A DNA stretch of 64,000 nucleotides, taken from contig JAFTWC010000003.1 of NCBI GenBank assembly GCA_017465475.1, positions 25,725 through 89,724 on the forward strand. Reading direction: 5' to 3'. The first letter of the stretch is position 1; each line of letters opens with the position of its first letter. Under the pieces are notes generated by a model that saw only the letters and a list, made by a program, of their open reading frames with translations, was not told the origin of the DNA and searched no databases. Shown piece by piece: positions 2,047-47,317 of this stretch. A program made the position numbers and the translations under genes. This DNA comes from Lachnospiraceae bacterium. Its GTDB lineage: Bacteria; Bacillota; Clostridia; Lachnospirales; Lachnospiraceae.

Positions 2047-4548
2047 ATGACAAAGAATGAGTTCAGAGAGCTGGCAGAAGGTCGTCTGGTATTTTTAGAC
2101 GGCGCCACAGGCAGTAATTTACAACGGGCGGGAATGCCGACAGGAGTTTGTCCGGAACAGTGGATTTTAGAAAATCCGGATTGTTTTATACAGTTACAGA
2201 AAAGCTATCTTCACCGGGGAACGGATATTTTATATGCCCCGACCTTTTCTGCAAACCGGATTAAGCTTTCCGAGTATGGCCTTGCGGACCGTGCAGAGGA
2301 GATGAATGAGCAGCTGGTGGCATTAAGTAAACGTGCTGTGGGGGAATACATGGTGGAAAAGCGGAATGCGGAAACCATTCCGTTGATTGCCGGGGATGTT
2401 ACCATGACCGGACAGTTATTACAGCCCTTAGGACCTCTTTCTTTTGAAGAAGCGGTAGCAGTCTACAAAGAACAAATGACAACGTTATACCGTGCCGGTG
2501 TAGATTTGTTTGTGGTGGAAACCATGATGAGCTTACAGGAAGCCAGAGCGGCACTCATCGCAGCAGGGGAAGTGTGTGATTTGCCGGTGATGGTGACCAT
2601 GACCTTTGATGAAAGTGCGCATACCTTGTACGGAACGGAACCGGAGACGGCCATGCTTGTTTTGCAGGGGCTGGGCGCAGATGCGGTAGGTATCAATTGT
2701 GGTGCCGGCCCGGCGAATTGTCTGGAAGTGGTAAAGCGAATGAAAGCAGTGGCAAATGTACCGGTGATTGCCAAGCCCAATGCGGGGATGCCAAAGCTGG
2801 TGGACGGTGTAACCGTTTATGACCAGACGCCGGACGTGTTTGCCAGAGAGATGAAAGGTTTGATAGATGCCGGGGCCGGAATTTTAGGCGGTTGTTGCGG
2901 TACTACGCCGGACCATATAGCGGCATTGTATGAAAGCTTTTCCAAAAAACATCCGCCTCATATCGAGACTGCACCGGTGCGCGCATTAAGCAATGAGCGT
3001 CGTACTTTGTTTGTGTCATTGGACGGTTCTTTTCTTCCGGTGGGAGAACGGATTAACCCGACGGGGAAGAAAAAGTTTCAAGAGTCTCTTCGTACAGGAG
3101 ATATTTCTATGGCGTTGCAGTTTGCCAGAGAACAGGAAGAAAACGGAGCGGCGATTTTAGACATTAATGTAGGAATGGGCGGAATTGATGAAAAAGAGAT
3201 GATGTGCCGGATTGTGGAGGCGGTTTCTCAGGAGACGAACCTTCCGCTGTCCATTGATACCAGTGATGCGGATGTGATGGAAGCTGCATTGCGGATTTAT
3301 CCGGGTCGTGCATTGGTCAATTCTGTTTCTTTGGAGGAAGGTCGTGCCGAGCGGTTGTTTCCGTTGGTGAAAAAGTACGGTGCCATGGTGGTGGTGTTGC
3401 CTCTTGACAGTAACGGATTGCCGAAAAATGCATCGGAGCGAAGAGAGAATCTCCATACATTAGTACAAAAAGCAAGTATTTACGGGATTCCGAAAGAATC
3501 TATTGTGGCGGACGGTTTAGTTATGACAGTGGGAGCAGAGCCAAACGCAGCATTGGAGGCACTGGACACCATAAAATATTGTAAGGAAGAATTAGGCGTG
3601 GCAACCACCTGTGGCCTTTCCAATATTTCTTACGGTCTGCCGGAGCGAGGCTATATTAATACTGCATTTTTGATGATGGCAATTACAAACGGTCTTACCA
3701 TGGCAATCGTAAATCCGAACCAGGATTTATTGATGAATCTTGTCTATGCATCAGAGCTTTTAAGAGCGAAGGAAGAGTCTGCAAAGCGTTATATCGAGCG
3801 GGCGGAATGGATTGGAGCAAAAAAGGAAGAAGAAGCATTGCAGGCGGCAAAAACAGCACCGGTCACACCGGAAAAGCCGGTAAGGACAGAAGCGAATAAA
3901 AGTGTAACCTCACCGGAAACTCCGTTAATGCAGGCAGTATTACGGGGAGATCAAAAAAATGTGAAAGCACTGACGGAGCAGCTGTTAGCGGAGGGAAAAG
4001 AGGCCTCGGTATTGTTGGAGAAAGAGCTGATTCCGGCCATTACGGAAGCCGGGACGCGGTTTGAACAGAAAAAGTTTTTCCTGCCGCAGTTAATCGGGGC
4101 AGCGGAGGCCATGAAAGCAGCAGTGGAATTATTGGAGCCTCAGCTGCAAAAAAGCGGTGATGTGAAAGCCTCCGGAACCATCGTGATAGCCACGGTAGAA
4201 GGGGATATTCATGACATCGGAAAAAATCTGGTGACACTGATGTTAAAGAATCACGGTTTTTCTGTCATTGATTTGGGAAAAGATGTGACGGCAGAGCGTA
4301 TTATAGAAGAAGCAAAGAAAGCGGACGCGGATTTGATTGCATTATCGGCACTTATGACGACTACCATGCGGTTTATGGCAGAAGTAGTGGAAGTACGGAA
4401 CAGAGAAAACCTTCGTGCTAAGATTATGATTGGCGGAGCCGTAACCACAGAAGAGTATGCAAAAGAAATCGGAGCGGACGGTTATGCGAAGGATGCACAG
4501 GGGGCCGTTACCCTGGCAAAGCAATTGATAGGAGGAACAAACGAATGA
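2047..4548 (+). CDS. metH: methionine synthase, short clostridial type (homocysteine S-methyltransferase + pterin-binding + B12-binding domains, no AdoMet reactivation domain)
   Basis: The Hcy-binding GGCCGTTP motif, a pterin-binding region and the B12 motif EGDIHDIGKN (DxHxxG) are present. The protein ends right after the B12 domain. GTG 2038 is an alternative start. Confidence 0.9.
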   Translation: MTKNEFRELAEGRLVFLDGATGSNLQRAGMPTGVCPEQWILENPDCFIQLQKSYLHRGTDILYAPTFSANRIKLSEYGLADRAEEMNEQLVALSKRAVGEYMVEKRNAETIPLIAGDVTMTGQLLQPLGPLSFEEAVAVYKEQMTTLYRAGVDLFVVETMMSLQEARAALIAAGEVCDLPVMVTMTFDESAHTLYGTEPETAMLVLQGLGADAVGINCGAGPANCLEVVKRMKAVANVPVIAKPNAGMPKLVDGVTVYDQTPDVFAREMKGLIDAGAGILGGCCGTTPDHIAALYESFSKKHPPHIETAPVRALSNERRTLFVSLDGSFLPVGERINPTGKKKFQESLRTGDISMALQFAREQEENGAAILDINVGMGGIDEKEMMCRIVEAVSQETNLPLSIDTSDADVMEAALRIYPGRALVNSVSLEEGRAERLFPLVKKYGAMVVVLPLDSNGLPKNASERRENLHTLVQKASIYGIPKESIVADGLVMTVGAEPNAALEALDTIKYCKEELGVATTCGLSNISYGLPERGYINTAFLMMAITNGLTMAIVNPNQDLLMNLVYASELLRAKEESAKRYIERAEWIGAKKEEEALQAAKTAPVTPEKPVRTEANKSVTSPETPLMQAVLRGDQKNVKALTEQLLAEGKEASVLLEKELIPAITEAGTRFEQKKFFLPQLIGAAEAMKAAVELLEPQLQKSGDVKASGTIVIATVEGDIHDIGKNLVTLMLKNHGFSVIDLGKDVTAERIIEEAKKADADLIALSALMTTTMRFMAEVVEVRNRENLRAKIMIGGAVTTEEYAKEIGADGYAKDAQGAVTLAKQLIGGTNE

Positions 4549-5504
4549 CAAAGCGAATGAGAGGAAATCTCCTGCTATTGTTGGCAGCATTAATCTGGGG
4601 CTTTTCTTTTGTGGCGCAAAGTGAAGGTATGAAATATATCGGGCCTTTTGCCTTCATCGGTATCAGGTCCATGCTTGCCGGAGTTTCTCTGGCGGCCTTT
4701 ATTGCGGTAAGGGAGTTAAGAAAGAAGACGAAAAACATCGGAAAAAAACACGGAGACCCTATGTCGACGGCTACGATGACAGAAGCGACGGAGAAAAAGG
4801 GACAGGAAAAGAAGAATCTGGTTCTCGGGGGATGCTGTTGCGGTATTATCCTGTTTGCGGCAACCATGTTACAGCAAATCGGAATTATGCATAACAATGA
4901 GCCGGGGAAAGCAGGATTTATTACGGCACTGTATTTGATTTTCGTACCTCTTACCGGTATTTTTGTACGAAAGAAAGTGGGAAGAAAAGTCTGGATTGCG
5001 GTGGCGTTAGCGGTATGCGGCATGTATTTGTTATGCATCAAGGGCGGACTCCACATGGCAGTGGGAGATTTGTATCTGTTGGGATGCGCTTTTGTGTTTA
5101 CGGCACATATTTTGGTAATTGATTTCTTTTCTCCGAAGGTGGATGGCGTTGCCATGTCCTGTATCCAGTTTTTGCTGTGCGGAGTATTGGGGATGACAGG
5201 AATGTTTCTGACGGAGCAGGTTGAACTGGTTCACATATTAGAAGCGTGGCTGCCACTGGTTTTCTCCGGCGTTTTTTCCGGAGGTGTGGCTTATACATTA
5301 CAGATTGTGGCGCAAAAGGATACGGAGCCGGCCACAGCTTCCCTGCTTATGAGTTTGGAATCGGTATTTGCCGTACTGGGAGAGTGGATTATTTTAGGTG
5401 AAGTGTTGACGGAACGGGAATTTTTGGGCTGTGCACTGATGTTTGCAGGAATTATTTTATCCCAACGACCGGATAAGCCGGGAGAGAAAACGACAGAGAT
5501 TTAA
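4545..5504 (+). CDS. DMT superfamily (EamA-like) transporter
   Basis: About 10 predicted TM segments with two EamA-like halves. ATGA start/stop overlap with metH. Confidence 0.8.
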   Translation: MTKRMRGNLLLLLAALIWGFSFVAQSEGMKYIGPFAFIGIRSMLAGVSLAAFIAVRELRKKTKNIGKKHGDPMSTATMTEATEKKGQEKKNLVLGGCCCGIILFAATMLQQIGIMHNNEPGKAGFITALYLIFVPLTGIFVRKKVGRKVWIAVALAVCGMYLLCIKGGLHMAVGDLYLLGCAFVFTAHILVIDFFSPKVDGVAMSCIQFLLCGVLGMTGMFLTEQVELVHILEAWLPLVFSGVFSGGVAYTLQIVAQKDTEPATASLLMSLESVFAVLGEWIILGEVLTEREFLGCALMFAGIILSQRPDKPGEKTTEI

Positions 5505-40156: not shown

Positions 40157-41946
40157 TGAAAAAAGTGTGCAGTAATCTCTGGTTTATGTGGAAGCTTTGT
40201 TTTAAGACGGCACCGGGTTTTATGCTGTATCATTTGTATGACGGCTTCCGGTTGCAGATTATGATTTTTTTGGAACATACCCTTTGCATCCAGTACGTAT
40301 TAAAGTGTGCGGAGTACGGAGAACCGTTTTGGAAGGTGTTTTTAGTTGTGGGAGGATTTTTGTTACTCATGATGCTGGTGACGATTCCGGACGGATATTA
40401 TCAGCATGCTATGGTATATCGCGTCAAACCGAAGCTTTATAAGGCTTTAAAGGATCAGATGTACGAAAAAGCAGCGGAGCTTGATCTTTCTTGCTATGAC
40501 AATCCGAAATACTACAATGAGTTTGTGTTGGCTGTGTCGGAGTCGGAGACTTCCATTGACCGTTTCCTGACGTTCTTAAACAATACGGTACAAAGTATAA
40601 CCATCTTAATTAGCACCGGTGTGTTCTTTATCTTGACGGATTCCATCGGAATTTTGTTTGTATCGGTATCCTTTGTGGCATCCTTCTTCCTGGCGAAGAA
40701 GTTAAATAAGTTGAATTACGATGTACGTATGAAAGTGAATCCTTGGGAACGTAAACGGAACTATGCCGGTCGTGTCTTTTACTTAAACGACTATGCGAAG
40801 GAGTTGCGTCTGAACAAGGATGTTGCCAAGATTTTGAAGGAAGACTTTGAAGAAGCCAACGATGCCATTGTGGCGGAACAGAAGGCAGTGGCAAAAAAGA
40901 GAATCGGACTGTCCTTTTTGCGGTATTACTGTGCAGGAGACTTTATTACGGATGGTTTGTATGTGGCCTATTTGATTTTCCAGGCAGCGGTATTCCATAC
41001 CATCGACTACAGCAATGCGGTGGTGCTGTTTAACCAGACCGGACGTTTGCGCAGGGGCATGCGCGGTATTGCGGAAATCGGACCGGCAGCCAATGAAAAC
41101 AGCTTGTACATAGAGAAAATCAGAAGTTTCCTTGCCTATGAACCGGAAATGAAGCAAGGTGTAGGTGAGGAAGTACCGGCAGGAACGGGAAGTCTGGAGC
41201 TGAAAAACGTGTCTTTCCGTTATACGGAGGATTCCGAGGAGATTTTACATGATATCAGCCTTAAGGTAGAACCGGGGGAGCGCGTGGCTATCGTAGGTTA
41301 CAACGGTGCCGGAAAGACGACGTTAATCAAGCTTTTGATGCGTTTGTACGACCCGAGTGCAGGTACGGTGGCTTACCACGGAAAGGACATTAAAGAGTAT
41401 GTACTTTCTGACTACAGAAATCGTGTAGGTGTTGTATTCCAGGACTTTAAGATGTACGGTGCAACTCTGTTGGAAAATGTGGTATTGGAAGATGTGGGCG
41501 ACGGTAAGAAGGAAGAAGCGGCAGTAACCGAAGCACTTTGTAAGAGTGGGTTCGGGGACAGAATCGAAACCTTGCCGAAGGGGCTTTCTACCGGTCTGAC
41601 CACGGAGTTCGACGAAAAAGGAGTGAACTTATCCGGCGGTGAAAGTCAGAAGGTAGCTATTGCAAGAGCCTTTTACCGTCAGGCGGATATTCTTATTATG
41701 GATGAACCGTCTTCTGCATTGGACCCGATTGCAGAGTACAATTTAAATAAAGCCATGCATGAGGCAGCGGAAGGAAAAACCGTATTCTATATTTCCCACC
41801 GTCTTTCCACCACCAGAGAGGCGGACCGTATCCTGATGCTGGAAAAGGGCCGGATTATTGAGGAAGGTACCCATGAGGAGCTGCTTGCAAAAAACGGGCA
41901 GTATGCCGAGATGTGGTATGCCCAGGCAGGAAAGTACACGGCGTAG
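40156..41946 (+). CDS. ABC exporter, fused permease/ATPase subunit (heterodimer partner 2)
   Basis: 6-TM domain plus NBD (GYNGAGKTT, LSGGESQK, IMDEPSSALD). 1-nt start/stop overlap with the upstream gene. Confidence 0.9.
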   Translation: MKKVCSNLWFMWKLCFKTAPGFMLYHLYDGFRLQIMIFLEHTLCIQYVLKCAEYGEPFWKVFLVVGGFLLLMMLVTIPDGYYQHAMVYRVKPKLYKALKDQMYEKAAELDLSCYDNPKYYNEFVLAVSESETSIDRFLTFLNNTVQSITILISTGVFFILTDSIGILFVSVSFVASFFLAKKLNKLNYDVRMKVNPWERKRNYAGRVFYLNDYAKELRLNKDVAKILKEDFEEANDAIVAEQKAVAKKRIGLSFLRYYCAGDFITDGLYVAYLIFQAAVFHTIDYSNAVVLFNQTGRLRRGMRGIAEIGPAANENSLYIEKIRSFLAYEPEMKQGVGEEVPAGTGSLELKNVSFRYTEDSEEILHDISLKVEPGERVAIVGYNGAGKTTLIKLLMRLYDPSAGTVAYHGKDIKEYVLSDYRNRVGVVFQDFKMYGATLLENVVLEDVGDGKKEEAAVTEALCKSGFGDRIETLPKGLSTGLTTEFDEKGVNLSGGESQKVAIARAFYRQADILIMDEPSSALDPIAEYNLNKAMHEAAEGKTVFYISHRLSTTREADRILMLEKGRIIEEGTHEELLAKNGQYAEMWYAQAGKYTA

Positions 41947-42207
41947 AGGGACGCAACCGCTCTGATGCGGCATCCATGCCTTATGGCGAGCTCGCTCAGA
42001 CATCCTGTCTGAGCGTTGCTGTATTCTTACGAAGTAATAAGAAAGTCTAATATCCTGCACAAAGTTCGAAGATACGTTTATGTGCGGGAAGCTCCTGAGA
42101 CTTTGAAAAGAGTGGCCACCCGAATCATCCCTGAAAGTTAAGAAAAGTGAAGGTTGCCGGATGGATAGTAAGTATGAGTTTCTTTCCTACAAGTACGGAT
42201 GAAAGAG

Positions 42208-45891: not shown

Positions 45892-46368
45892 ATGCAGACA
45901 AGAAAATCAAGCCGGGCAATTGTTTTAAATAAGCAGAATCAAATATTTCTGTTTTGCTATACTTTCGACTTCTTTGCCGAAAACGATGCCATCTGGATAA
46001 CACCAGGTGGAGCATTGGAGGAAGGAGAGTCCTTTGAAGGTGCTCTGAAAAGGGAGCTTTTTGAAGAACTTGGGATTAAGATTACGGCGCAGGCACCGTT
46101 TGTTTTTTATCGGACACCGATGTATAAGTTAAAGGGCGGAGAAACGGTGCGAAGTGAGGAACGGTTTTATCTTGTATATTGCGATGATGAGACGTTTTCT
46201 TACAACGGTTGGAGTGAGAATGAGATGAAAAAGATGACTGCCGGAAAGTGGTGGTCTGTGGAAGAAATCAAAAAGTCTTCCGAGAAGTTTTTCTCGGAGG
46301 ATATCGTGGAAATACTGGAGAGGCTTTCCGCGGGAGAAATCCTGAAAGAACCGTTGGAGATTCGGTGA
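45892..46368 (+). CDS. NUDIX hydrolase
   Basis: Nudix box GGALEEGESFEGALKRELFEELG. Confidence 0.85.
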   Translation: MQTRKSSRAIVLNKQNQIFLFCYTFDFFAENDAIWITPGGALEEGESFEGALKRELFEELGIKITAQAPFVFYRTPMYKLKGGETVRSEERFYLVYCDDETFSYNGWSENEMKKMTAGKWWSVEEIKKSSEKFFSEDIVEILERLSAGEILKEPLEIR

Positions 46369-46391
46369 GAGACTGAACGCTGTTGAAGACA

Positions 46392-46857
46392 CCCAACGAA
46401 ACGAAGAAAAAGAAGAAATCGTTGGGTGGAAGAGCCAGGGTGAACCCAACGAAACGAAGAAAAAGGAGAAATCGTTGGGGGGAAGAGCCAGGGTGAACCC
46501 AACGAAACGAAGAAAAAGAAGAAATCGTTGGGTGGAAGAGTCAGGAAGAACCCAACGAAACGAAGAAAAAGGAGAAATCGTTGGGTAGAAGAGTCAAGGT
46601 GTACCCAACGAAACGAAGAAAAAGAAGAAATCGTTGGGTAGAAGAGCCAAGAAGAACCCAACGAAACGAAGAAAAAGAAGAAATCGTTGGGTAGAAGAGC
46701 CGGGAAGAACCCAACGAAATGAAGAAAAAGAAGAAATCGTTGGGTAGAAGAGTAGGGGAGAACCCAACGAAACGAAGAAAAAGGAGAAATCGTTGGGTGG
46801 AAGAGCCAAGGTGGACCCAACGAAACGAAGAAAACCAAGAATAAGTTGGATTATACC
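46392..46857. repeat. tandem array: 8 complete and 1 degenerate copy of a 53-bp unit, each holding a hairpin (CCCAACGA / TCGTTGGG arms, 19-nt purine-rich loop)
   Basis: Motif starts at 46392, 46445, 46498, 46551, 46604, 46657, 46710, 46763 and 46816, an exact 53-bp period. Confidence 0.95.
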
Positions 46858-46873
46858 GTGCAAGCGTTATAAT
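46846..46873 (+). promoter_or_regulatory. sigma-A-type promoter of the HIT gene
   Basis: TTGGAT, 16 nt, TATAAT. The -35 lies inside the degenerate last repeat unit. Confidence 0.45.
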
Positions 46874-46901: not shown

Positions 46902-47317
46902 ATGATACATAAAAACAACGATTGCATATTTTGTAAAATAATAAGCGGTGAGCGCCCGTGCAAGAAGGTGTACGAGGATGAGTATACTTTAGTAACCATG
47001 GATAAAGCCGGAGATGCAGACGGACATATGCTTGTGATGCCGAAAAAACATGTAAATAACATTATGGATACGGACATTGAGTCGTTAAATCAGATGATGG
47101 CGACGGTGAAAAGGTGTCCAATCATTGCGTGGACAACTGCGGATACGAAGGAATTAACCTGATAGGGACCAACGGACCCGGCGCGGACCAAACGGTTCCC
47201 CATTTTCATATGCATGTGATTCCGCGTAAGAAGGATGACGGCATCGAAGCTTGGCCGGAGTTCGGCGGGGCGAAGCATGACATGGACGAGATATTTGAGA
47301 AAATCAAGATGATGTAA
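46902..47317 (+). pseudogene. HIT-family (histidine triad) protein interrupted by a 1-nt frameshift
   Basis: The two ORFs 46902-47162 and 47114-47317 together give a complete HIT protein (CIFCKI..., HMLVMPKKH, HFHMHVIPR). The frame changes at the A4 run 47109-47112. Confidence 0.8.

Follow-up and report, generated by a model that had tools for sequence, protein, structure and literature searches.

Structured intergenic repeats such as REP, BIME, BOX, ERIC and MIRU have been well studied in proteobacteria, streptococci and mycobacteria. MIRU are direct repeats of ~50 bp that lie between genes in a fixed orientation, vary in copy number between strains and contain small open reading frames (ORFs) overlapping the flanking genes. 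Some MIRU loci are built of 53-bp units (PMC3558156). BOX is an intergenic repeat of Firmicutes in which a ~45-bp boxB module occurs in tandems of variable length that would form stem-loops if transcribed; its effects on neighboring genes depend on orientation, and longer arrays are more variable (PMC3049150). REP sequences are regularly spaced, clustered extragenic palindromes, some of them in tandem, that are found mostly downstream of genes between unidirectional ORFs and have been implicated in mRNA stabilization, attenuation and protein binding (PMC2817692, PMC3733652, PMC3333891), with more than 100 copies per genome (PMC2817692). In the literature on structured intergenic repeats in Clostridia and Lachnospiraceae, we found no equivalent description for gut or rumen members. 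Here, we describe an array of nine 53-bp hairpin units between a NUDIX hydrolase gene and a HIT-family gene in a 64-kb stretch of a Lachnospiraceae genome (positions 25,725 to 89,724 of contig JAFTWC010000003.1), referred to as a whole as the window. The nine-copy repeat belongs to a real, lineage-restricted, low-copy family in gut or rumen Lachnospiraceae.

By analogy, the array resembles structured intergenic repeats of the REP/BOX/MIRU type; it differs from MIRU, BOX and BIME in its direct hairpin units, purine-rich loops, rigid 17/18-nt spacing and low copy number. Like MIRU, it consists of direct tandem repeats of ~50 bp (51-53-bp classes), occurs at several loci in gaps whose flanking genes run in the same direction, keeps one orientation with respect to transcription and differs in copy number from strain to strain. 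Its period, sense orientation and variable copies are thus those of a MIRU-type intergenic variable number tandem repeat (VNTR), a likeness to be read as functional analogy only. There is no sequence similarity, the organisms are unrelated, MIRU contain ORFs whereas the + strand frames of the array are stopped, and the units of the array are defined by a conserved hairpin with purine-rich loops.

BOX is likewise a Firmicute intergenic tandem module of variable length with predicted RNA stem-loops, but it has boxA and boxC terminal inverted repeats, behaves as a miniature inverted-repeat transposable element and exceeds 100 copies per genome, whereas the array has no flanking modules, is rare and has no solitary units in 190 kb. 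REP sequences are GC-rich, near-perfect palindromes with a 2-5 nt loop and a GTAG/CGTC head, present in hundreds of copies that alternate in orientation within BIMEs and have a cognate RAYT gene. The units described here instead have an 8-9 bp stem with five G-C pairs, a loop of 17-19 nt, a start of (A)CCCAACGA and direct orientation. Membership in REP/BIME was rejected on the low copy number, the missing GTAG/CGTC head, the long loop and the direct units; no RAYT gene (Y1 HUH transposase) was seen in the 64-kb window.

Structure of the array

An initial annotation of the window, made from the letters alone, had proposed nine exactly periodic 53-bp units, each with an 8-9 bp stem, a 19-nt purine loop and an 18-nt linker. 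A listing of positions and Tandem Repeats Finder both bear this out. Nine head-to-tail units occupy 46392-46850 of the + strand, with CCCAACGA starting at 46392, 46445, 46498, 46551, 46604, 46657, 46710, 46763 and 46816, a spacing of exactly 53 bp; this 8-mer has only two further copies in the 64 kb outside the array. Tandem Repeats Finder places the array at 46391-46841 (period 53, 8.5 copies, 90% matches, 0% indels, score 699), by far the strongest repeat of the window. Its parts are as follows.

46392..46815, + strand: units 1-8, each of 53 bp and composed of CCCAACGA, a 19-nt A/G loop, TCGTTGGG and an 18-nt purine-rich linker
46816..46850, + strand: unit 9, a degenerate terminal unit, CCCAACGAA...TAAGTTGGA, whose right arm TAAGTTGGA overlaps a putative -35 element

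The arms CCCAACGA/TCGTTGGG are identical in units 1-8 and form the 8-9 bp stem, which can be extended to 9-10 bp. As first reported, GGAG occurs in the loops of units 2, 4 and 8 (in all three as AAAGGAG), and the loop of unit 7 carries an ACG>ATG change. The purine share of unit 1, originally estimated at ~75% overall and ~85% outside the stem, was measured as 75.5% and 86.5%. Minimum free energy folding gives one hairpin per unit on either strand, at -142.6 kcal/mol for the + strand (z = -9.4 against shuffles) and -135.6 kcal/mol for the - strand (z = -13.0); a lone unit folds at -11.4 kcal/mol (z = -4.8). Mixed-arm arrays and energies did not decide whether the loop or the linker lies inside the hairpin. 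L084, assembled from a different sample, also has these nine units, with a single-nucleotide polymorphism in one linker, so the array is not an assembly artifact.

The view that this is not a coding repeat also held. The period is not a multiple of 3, every + strand frame meets a stop within 1-3 units and NUDIX is not joined to HIT by any ORF. All three - strand frames run through the array without a stop only because TTA, CTA and TCA are absent from the + strand there. A - strand coding repeat was nevertheless rejected, the open frames being an artifact of composition and the stops TTA and TCA occurring in the arrays of L088 and L097. H-DNA or triplex formation was discarded too, because the mirror symmetry of the window loop GAAGAAAAAGAAG is not kept in relatives. 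None of the PurBox, LexA, Spo0A and cre operators suits the arm sequence.

Conservation of arms, pairing and spacing

The sequence of the arms, their complementarity and their spacing are under constraint. To describe the family, we segmented 50 units from nine arrays, of which 42 distinct units make up the pairing alignment. Type A arms have the consensus CCCAACGAA / TTCGTTGGG, and type G arms, CCCGACTAA / TTAGTCGGG, are found in L088, L097 and L089. Across the 42 units, 89% of stem cells are paired, a level reached by none of 500 shuffles (0/500), which give 84.8%, and pairing falls to 41-53% when the partner is slid by one column. Two stem positions show compensatory change: A-U (29 units) or G-C (8) at position 4, and G-C (23) or U-A (5) at position 7. 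The swap at position 4 is a genuine substitution pair and not just homogenization, because it is also seen in the orthologous terminal unit (see below). The hairpin that had been read from the window is therefore evolutionarily maintained.

Variation within arrays is distributed unevenly over the unit. The per-site minor-allele fraction, taken over 26 interior units from four arrays, rises from 0.01 in the left arm and 0.03 in the right arm to 0.10 for the loop and 0.18 for the linker. The four units of L097 are 78% identical in their arms, 50% in their loops and 35% in their linkers, the last being about random, and their lengths are exact, with every loop 17 nt and every linker 18 nt long. 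The linker measures 18 nt in 50/50 units, the period is 53±1 everywhere and loops span 17-19 nt across arrays. The consensus units of the window and L090 are identical at 47/53 positions, including 34/35 in the core, whereas the NUDIX genes next to the arrays share only 57% identity at four-fold degenerate sites. For the close pair L090 and L102, the unit consensus matches at 45/53 positions and four-fold sites at 85%.

The loops are 76-93% purine in every array and have an A-run at the center in at least 90% of units; linker purine content is at background in L097 and L089. The loop GAAGAAAAAGAAGAAA is common to the window, L090 and L101, whereas the loops of L007, L008, L088 and L097 are entirely different. 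Edge units are degenerate. As a separate observation, the last Gs of the right arm and the linker can form a 4-bp stem in some units of L090 and L102 (linkers such as GGGCTGAGAAGCC and GGGCTGAAAAGCC). Formation of this stem, which is capped by a GNRA tetraloop (GAGA or GAAA), would be in competition with that of the main hairpin; the window, L007, L008 and L088 do not conserve it.

Copy number in relatives of the locus

Relatives of the locus were collected by tracing NUDIX homologs to their contigs, the orthologs being 71-92% identical. Synteny is conserved, in the order cyclase, NUDIX, a variable GNAT set, HIT and DUF402-NUDIX. Downstream of the NUDIX gene, the following numbers of units are found.

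9 units: the window, L084, L090/L091 and L102
7 units: L111
5 units: L112 and L088
4 units: L097
1 unit: L089
Remnant only: L094, L095, L096 and L100
No units and no intergenic module: L103

This survey, which the initial annotation had suggested, shows that unit number changes quickly, from 0 to 9 copies with synteny kept and with the two compensatory stem positions described above. Replication slippage, or unequal recombination among the units, is the simplest explanation of this change. Even L111 and L112, which have an identical NUDIX gene (92% nucleotide identity to that of the window), carry 7 and 5 units respectively, a difference that could also come from short-read collapse. The array breaks short-read assemblies, because several contigs end inside it (L085-L087, L092, L093, L109 and L110).

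The terminal unit is orthologous across species (L088, L089, L090, L097, L102 and L111) and always abuts a conserved TTATAyCG-N6-CGTTATAAT. Beyond it, the gap between the NUDIX and DUF402-NUDIX genes is highly variable in gene content among L088, L089, L090, L094, L097, L100, L102 and L103, with 0-2 GNAT genes, small ORFs and HIT present or absent, so that a gain/loss hotspot lies beside the repeat.

Arrays at other loci

When 185,579 species representatives were scanned for a two-unit pattern, eight loci were returned, of which only L007 and L008 are true relatives, the other six being chance hairpins. L007, from a Lachnospiraceae metagenome-assembled genome (MAG), has four units by manual segmentation (2.8 copies with period 54 according to Tandem Repeats Finder) between a GH3 gene with a terminator and tRNA genes, and TATAAT directly follows its last unit. 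L008, from an Acetatifactor MAG, has five 54-bp units between a GNAT gene and a Y-family polymerase gene. In the L008 region 3304-5326, ~300 nt separate the array from this DinB/ImuB-like polymerase gene downstream of it, and a YolD-like gene comes next; the leader between array and polymerase gene has no Rfam match.

The - strand pseudo-ORF of the array was also used as a protein query. A word-indexed search gave one relative, P0121, which leads to locus L101, where five units lie between the terminator of an ABC-ATPase gene and the Shine-Dalgarno sequence of another NUDIX gene. An exhaustive search added four more apparent pseudo-ORF clusters, P0123-P0126, judged by repeat periodicity. P0125 looks orthologous to the L101 locus, since its non-repeat tail is like that of P0121; P0124, P0126 and the more distant P0123 are apparently other arrays. 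Public collections thus hold array 'proteins' of 100-276 aa (P0121 and P0123-P0126), and genes have been called on the arrays of L092 (3309-3728, - strand), L109 (4309-4776, - strand), L111 (473-1036, - strand) and L090 (3504-3803, + strand). These 'proteins' are annotation artifacts, because the pyrimidine-strand frames are stop-free.

Taken over all loci, the arms are shared by at least four unrelated loci in different species, and the purine-rich strand is the coding strand of both neighbors at 4/4 independent loci (the NUDIX locus, L101, L007 and L008). Units are found only within arrays: a search with nhmmer and a unit profile detected no solitary unit in ~190 kb, comprising the window and 24 Lachnospiraceae loci. 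In agreement with the earlier impression that no named RNA family is involved, Rfam gave no match on the window array at the gathering threshold or at E<=10, nor on seven related loci at the gathering threshold or at E<=1. BLAST against phage and plasmid collections produced nothing relevant, and scans of IMG/VR with three arm patterns produced chance matches only.

A metagenome search with the pattern CCAACGAA-N-TCGTTGG-N-CCAACGAA returned 74 loci, which were discarded as unrelated hairpin repeats, mostly of one marine family. This marine element (L011, L012, L019-L022, L027 and ~35 more loci) is ~120 nt long, unrelated to the array and highly recurrent. It is built of nested CCCAACGAA/TTCGTTGGG motifs, e.g. 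GCCCAACGAAATCGGCCTCCGTTAGGGGCTTCGTTGGGCTTCGTTGGGGGCCCAACGAAGCCCAACGAAG, occurs on dozens of marine contigs and looks like a dispersed repeat of one abundant organism.

Chromosomal setting of the array

The genes and signals next to the array are as follows.

45892-46368, + strand: NUDIX hydrolase gene (PF00293), with its stop 23 nt before unit 1
46846..46873, + strand: putative promoter of the downstream gene, read from the sequence, with TTGGAT at 46846-46851, a 16-nt spacer and TATAAT at 46868-46873
46902..47317, + strand: HIT-family gene (PF01230), in two overlapping ORFs

MBQ8798140.1, encoded in an uncultured Lachnospiraceae MAG, has the same sequence as the NUDIX protein of the window. 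As the initial annotation had it, no terminator separates the NUDIX stop from the array 23 nt further on, and no + strand terminator-like site is predicted anywhere between 46368 and 46900. Unit 9 is degenerate, as had been noted, but the -35 element that it was said to overlap is weak: TTGGAT matches the consensus at only 3/6 positions, and the TTGGAT/TATAAT promoter was not listed by a consensus promoter scan. The -10 and its surrounding palindrome are kept in relatives with or without an array. Neither strand has promoter-like or terminator-like sites bracketing the array, and no - strand promoter was found downstream of it.

According to Pfam scans of ~40 ORFs, the window is a core region with metH, hprK, murB, whiA, dnaE, pfk, era and recO, together with trpS, two-component systems and the Rnf complex; the same scans found no integrase, transposase, cas, rep or par genes in the 64 kb. 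The window has a strongly positive GC skew throughout (+0.14 to +0.31), which makes the + strand, and hence the purine-rich strand of the array, the leading strand.

Comparison with other repeat systems

The sopC centromere of the F plasmid comprises 12 direct repeats of 43 bp, each with a short inverted repeat bound by SopB. The array resembles it in its phased direct repeats with one short inverted repeat per unit. Unlike sopC, the array is chromosomal, lies in a housekeeping region without adjacent parA/parB-like genes, is dispensable and is strand-asymmetric. The suggestion that it might be an iteron or centromere-like array was accordingly abandoned, given its core chromosomal position, the lack of rep and par genes in the window and the presence of only 0-1 copies in close relatives.

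ToxI is a purine-rich RNA made of short tandem direct repeats of ~35-45 nt, and type III antitoxin arrays in general (ToxI, CptI, AntiQ) share with our array short, purine-rich direct units in tandem. They differ in being flanked by a promoter and a terminator and in directly preceding a gene for a ToxN, AbiQ or CptN endoribonuclease. We rejected this assignment as the neighbors of the arrays are NUDIX, HIT, GNAT, GH3, tRNA and Y-family polymerase genes, with no ToxN-like gene among them.

The attC sites of integrons have the core sequences RYYYAAC (R'') and GTTRRRY (R'). The outer 7-mers of type A arms fit both (ACCCAAC and GTTGGGT), a unit would fold as a single-strand hairpin, and the neighbors are small and co-oriented, with GNAT genes that come and go. 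The attC sites are, however, 57-141 nt long, compared with a core of 35 nt here; the array has no L boxes or extrahelical bases, its units are in tandem with no cassettes or ORFs between them, and type G arms break the AAC/GTT triplets. No intI, attI or tyrosine recombinase was found in the 64-kb window. The consensus match of type A arms is probably coincidental.

CRISPR arrays also consist of regularly spaced repeats containing a palindrome. In the array, the intervening 17-19 nt segments are purine-rich and 77-93% identical between units, in contrast to unique spacers of ~25-70 nt, and no Cas family was found among the ~40 window ORFs or in the precomputed Pfam calls of neighbors. The initial exclusion of CRISPR stands, the 'spacers' being near-identical and cas genes lacking from the window.

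Possible functions of the repeat

We tentatively favor the interpretation that the array is a selectively maintained hairpin minisatellite, co-transcribed with its neighbors and acting in cis on the transcript, with a copy number that drifts by slippage. Because there is no terminator in between, the array would be transcribed as a 3' extension of the NUDIX operon. The RNA would then be a string of 8-9 bp stem-loops, and as loops and linkers made of A and G only could not pair with each other, each stem-loop would be independent. Such a transcript is C-poor and G-rich and should therefore be a poor substrate for Rho; in reverse, the array would yield an excellent one, and this may be the reason for the orientation rule. 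The stem-loops could act as stacked barriers to 3'-exonucleases or as processing sites, or the array could be an insulating spacer between the upstream operon and a separately regulated downstream promoter, and copy number would tune the effect. Co-transcribed stem-loops of BOX, REP/BIME and ERIC stabilize or attenuate operon transcripts or trigger their cleavage (PMC3049150, PMC2817692), and by analogy with these repeats a cis role on the transcript is the most economical. We infer that the array is not a trans-acting regulator.

Several findings weigh against a cis role on the transcript. The register of the hairpin is ambiguous, since a right arm pairs just as well with the next left arm (-13.6 kcal/mol) as within its own unit (-11.4 kcal/mol). 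On the purine strand, stem mismatches comprise 19 G·U and 16 A·C, a parity that is also seen in interior units and made this strand-specific wobble test uninformative, and the L088 stem pairs better on the opposite strand (-12.7 vs -8.8 kcal/mol). The L007 array starts ~20 nt after a strong intrinsic terminator and the L101 array lies ~300 nt after one, so a role as a 3' untranslated region cannot be general. The rigid linker length fits helical phasing better than an exonuclease barrier, since 53 bp is about five turns, and the loss of the array in several relatives means that it is dispensable. Finally, both the transcription of the array and its effect on RNA are things that we infer.

A near-neutral structured VNTR is a somewhat unlikely rival. 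The unit would have arisen upstream of a promoter and would grow and shrink by slippage with no function of its own; arm complementarity would be restored by template switching in quasi-palindromes and not by selection, and orientation would be filtered only because the C-rich orientation would create Rho-dependent polarity. The spread of 0-9 copies among relatives and of 5, 7 or 9 among close strains fits this explanation, as do the several lineages that lack the array with no visible replacement, the degenerate edge units expected of tandem arrays, the stem mismatches without wobble bias and the comparison of L090 with L102, in which unit identity (45/53) is about that of four-fold sites (85%). 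It is difficult to reconcile with the 47/53 identity between window and L090 units when neutral sites are near saturation at 57%, with the 78% identical arms and exact lengths of L097 beside randomized linkers, or with identical arms at the four or more unrelated loci in different species. An explanation that we regard as rather unlikely is that the arms are half-sites in duplex DNA for a dimeric or oligomeric regulator or a nucleoid-associated protein; the arm sequence shared by different loci and species would fit this, as would the changes that mirror each other in the two half-sites. Here, the period of about five turns would phase sites upstream of the promoter, and the array would serve as an operator or enhancer, as a roadblock or insulator, or in DNA wrapping. 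The period of 53±1, the linker that remains 18 nt even with a randomized sequence and the lack of strand preference in stem mismatches are consistent with it, and so are the last unit of the NUDIX locus, which abuts or overlaps the conserved promoter and operator block, and the TATAAT that follows the last L007 unit. Binding to duplex DNA leaves the strand asymmetry unexplained, however, as the loops are 76-93% purine and always on the sense and leading strand at 4/4 loci; the half-sites are ~26.5 bp (2.5 turns) apart and so on opposite helix faces, which is unusual for a dimer; L094 and L100 keep the promoter without any unit; and the Pfam calls of the neighbors and the window link no candidate binding protein to the arrays.

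Another candidate explanation is a hairpin acting in single-stranded DNA (ssDNA). If units of the REP/RAYT or attC type were substrates of an HUH Y1 transposase or a tyrosine recombinase at the replication fork, the enzyme would seed them at new loci with an orientation fixed relative to replication, as expected of replication-coupled ssDNA transposition (PMC5027513, PMC3333891). The recurrence of the arms at unrelated loci in several species, complementarity kept without an RNA-type wobble bias, the uniform orientation (on the leading strand in the window, judging from its GC skew) and the attC-like type A arms all agree with this explanation. We nevertheless consider it unlikely, given the very low density (a single array in the 64 kb, and ~190 kb without a solitary unit), the lack of a GTAG or CGTC head (PMC3733652), the absence of a transposase or integrase from the window and from the neighborhood of every array, the type G arms CCCGAC/GTCGGG that break the AAC/GTT triplet invariant in attC, and a stem of only 8-9 bp with an unpaired 17-nt loop and no L boxes. 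It is similarly doubtful, and if anything more so, that the RYYYAAC...GTTRRRY-like arms with their rigid 17/18-nt spacing are a module for a dedicated protein, be it an ssDNA recombinase or HUH enzyme or an RNA-binding protein. Two proposals of the initial annotation fared worse. A trans-acting RNA sponge or scaffold of the CsrB type, whose loops titrate CsrA, Hfq or similar proteins or 30S subunits, might be suggested by up to nine near-identical accessible A/G loops, by the GAAGAAAAAGAAGAAA loop conserved in the window, L090 and L101 and by AAAGGAG in three window loops. It is now very improbable: GGA is not enriched in loops and linkers (47 observed vs 62.5±5.9 in mononucleotide shuffles of the 50 units), GGAG loops occur in only 4/50 units and are not conserved, L008 loops lack GGA, loops differ entirely in L007, L008, L088 and L097, copy number drops to 0 or 1 in relatives, and no dedicated promoter or terminator defines a small RNA gene. 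An antisense, CU-rich anti-Shine-Dalgarno RNA from the - strand is the least probable of all. The - strand folds equally well, its loops UUUCUCCUUUUU resemble the 3' tail of 16S rRNA and the L088 stems pair better on that strand, but there is no sign of a - strand promoter downstream of the array, the co-directional neighbors are on the opposite strand at every locus, with the purine strand being the sense strand at 4/4, and from established knowledge a C-rich, G-poor transcript would be an ideal Rho substrate.

Implications for annotation and typing

With pairing, sequence and spacing conserved and copy number free, the family offers a compact test case and is suited to asking whether such repeats act on RNA, ssDNA or duplex DNA. 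If the arms were the module of a dedicated trans-acting protein, the family would represent a new protein-nucleic acid system instead of a passive minisatellite. The ssDNA recombinase or HUH option, if true, would mean that Firmicutes have their own equivalent of REP/BIME or attC substrates, with units seeded at the replication fork, and under the option of an RNA-binding protein the protein would assemble on a multi-hairpin scaffold. In practice, the array could serve as a strain-typing VNTR for uncultured Lachnospiraceae, and its effects are already felt in broken short-read assemblies and spurious 'proteins' in public databases.

Other features of the locus

Some observations on the surroundings of the array are recorded here for completeness. 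Comparison with the intact HIT genes of L103 and L089 shows that an A-run near 47108-47112 has lost 1 nt in the window (GAAAAGG vs GAAAAAGG in L103), upstream of the HxHxH motif, which splits the HIT gene. The deletion is also present in the independent assembly L084, and the frameshift looks like a real pseudogene or a slippery site and not a sequencing error. A palindrome, TTATACCG-N6-CGTTATAA at 46851-46872, overlaps the TATAAT -10 and is present in all relatives; it is probably a repressor operator for the downstream GNAT or HIT gene. Elsewhere in the window, a TwoAYGGAY RNA motif (RF01731) was detected at 41915-42041 on the - strand, with 54.8 bits, above the gathering score. It lies just after an ABC-transporter gene and antisense to all surrounding genes, and its occurrence fits gut Clostridia.

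Relatives of the locus also contain a leader mini-ORF (L094 ~3560-3620; L100, L089, L102 and L111) of 14 codons that starts with ATGATACATAAAAACAAC and reads MIHKNNRNRRFDIS*. It is followed by a hairpin, CAGGAGATTTGATATCTCCTG, and then by the Shine-Dalgarno sequence of an Eis-like GNAT gene, a layout reminiscent of the way in which leader peptides control resistance genes by translational attenuation. The window has lost the GNAT gene by deletion, and the first six codons of the leader (MIHKNN, 46902-46919) are fused to codon 2 of HIT.

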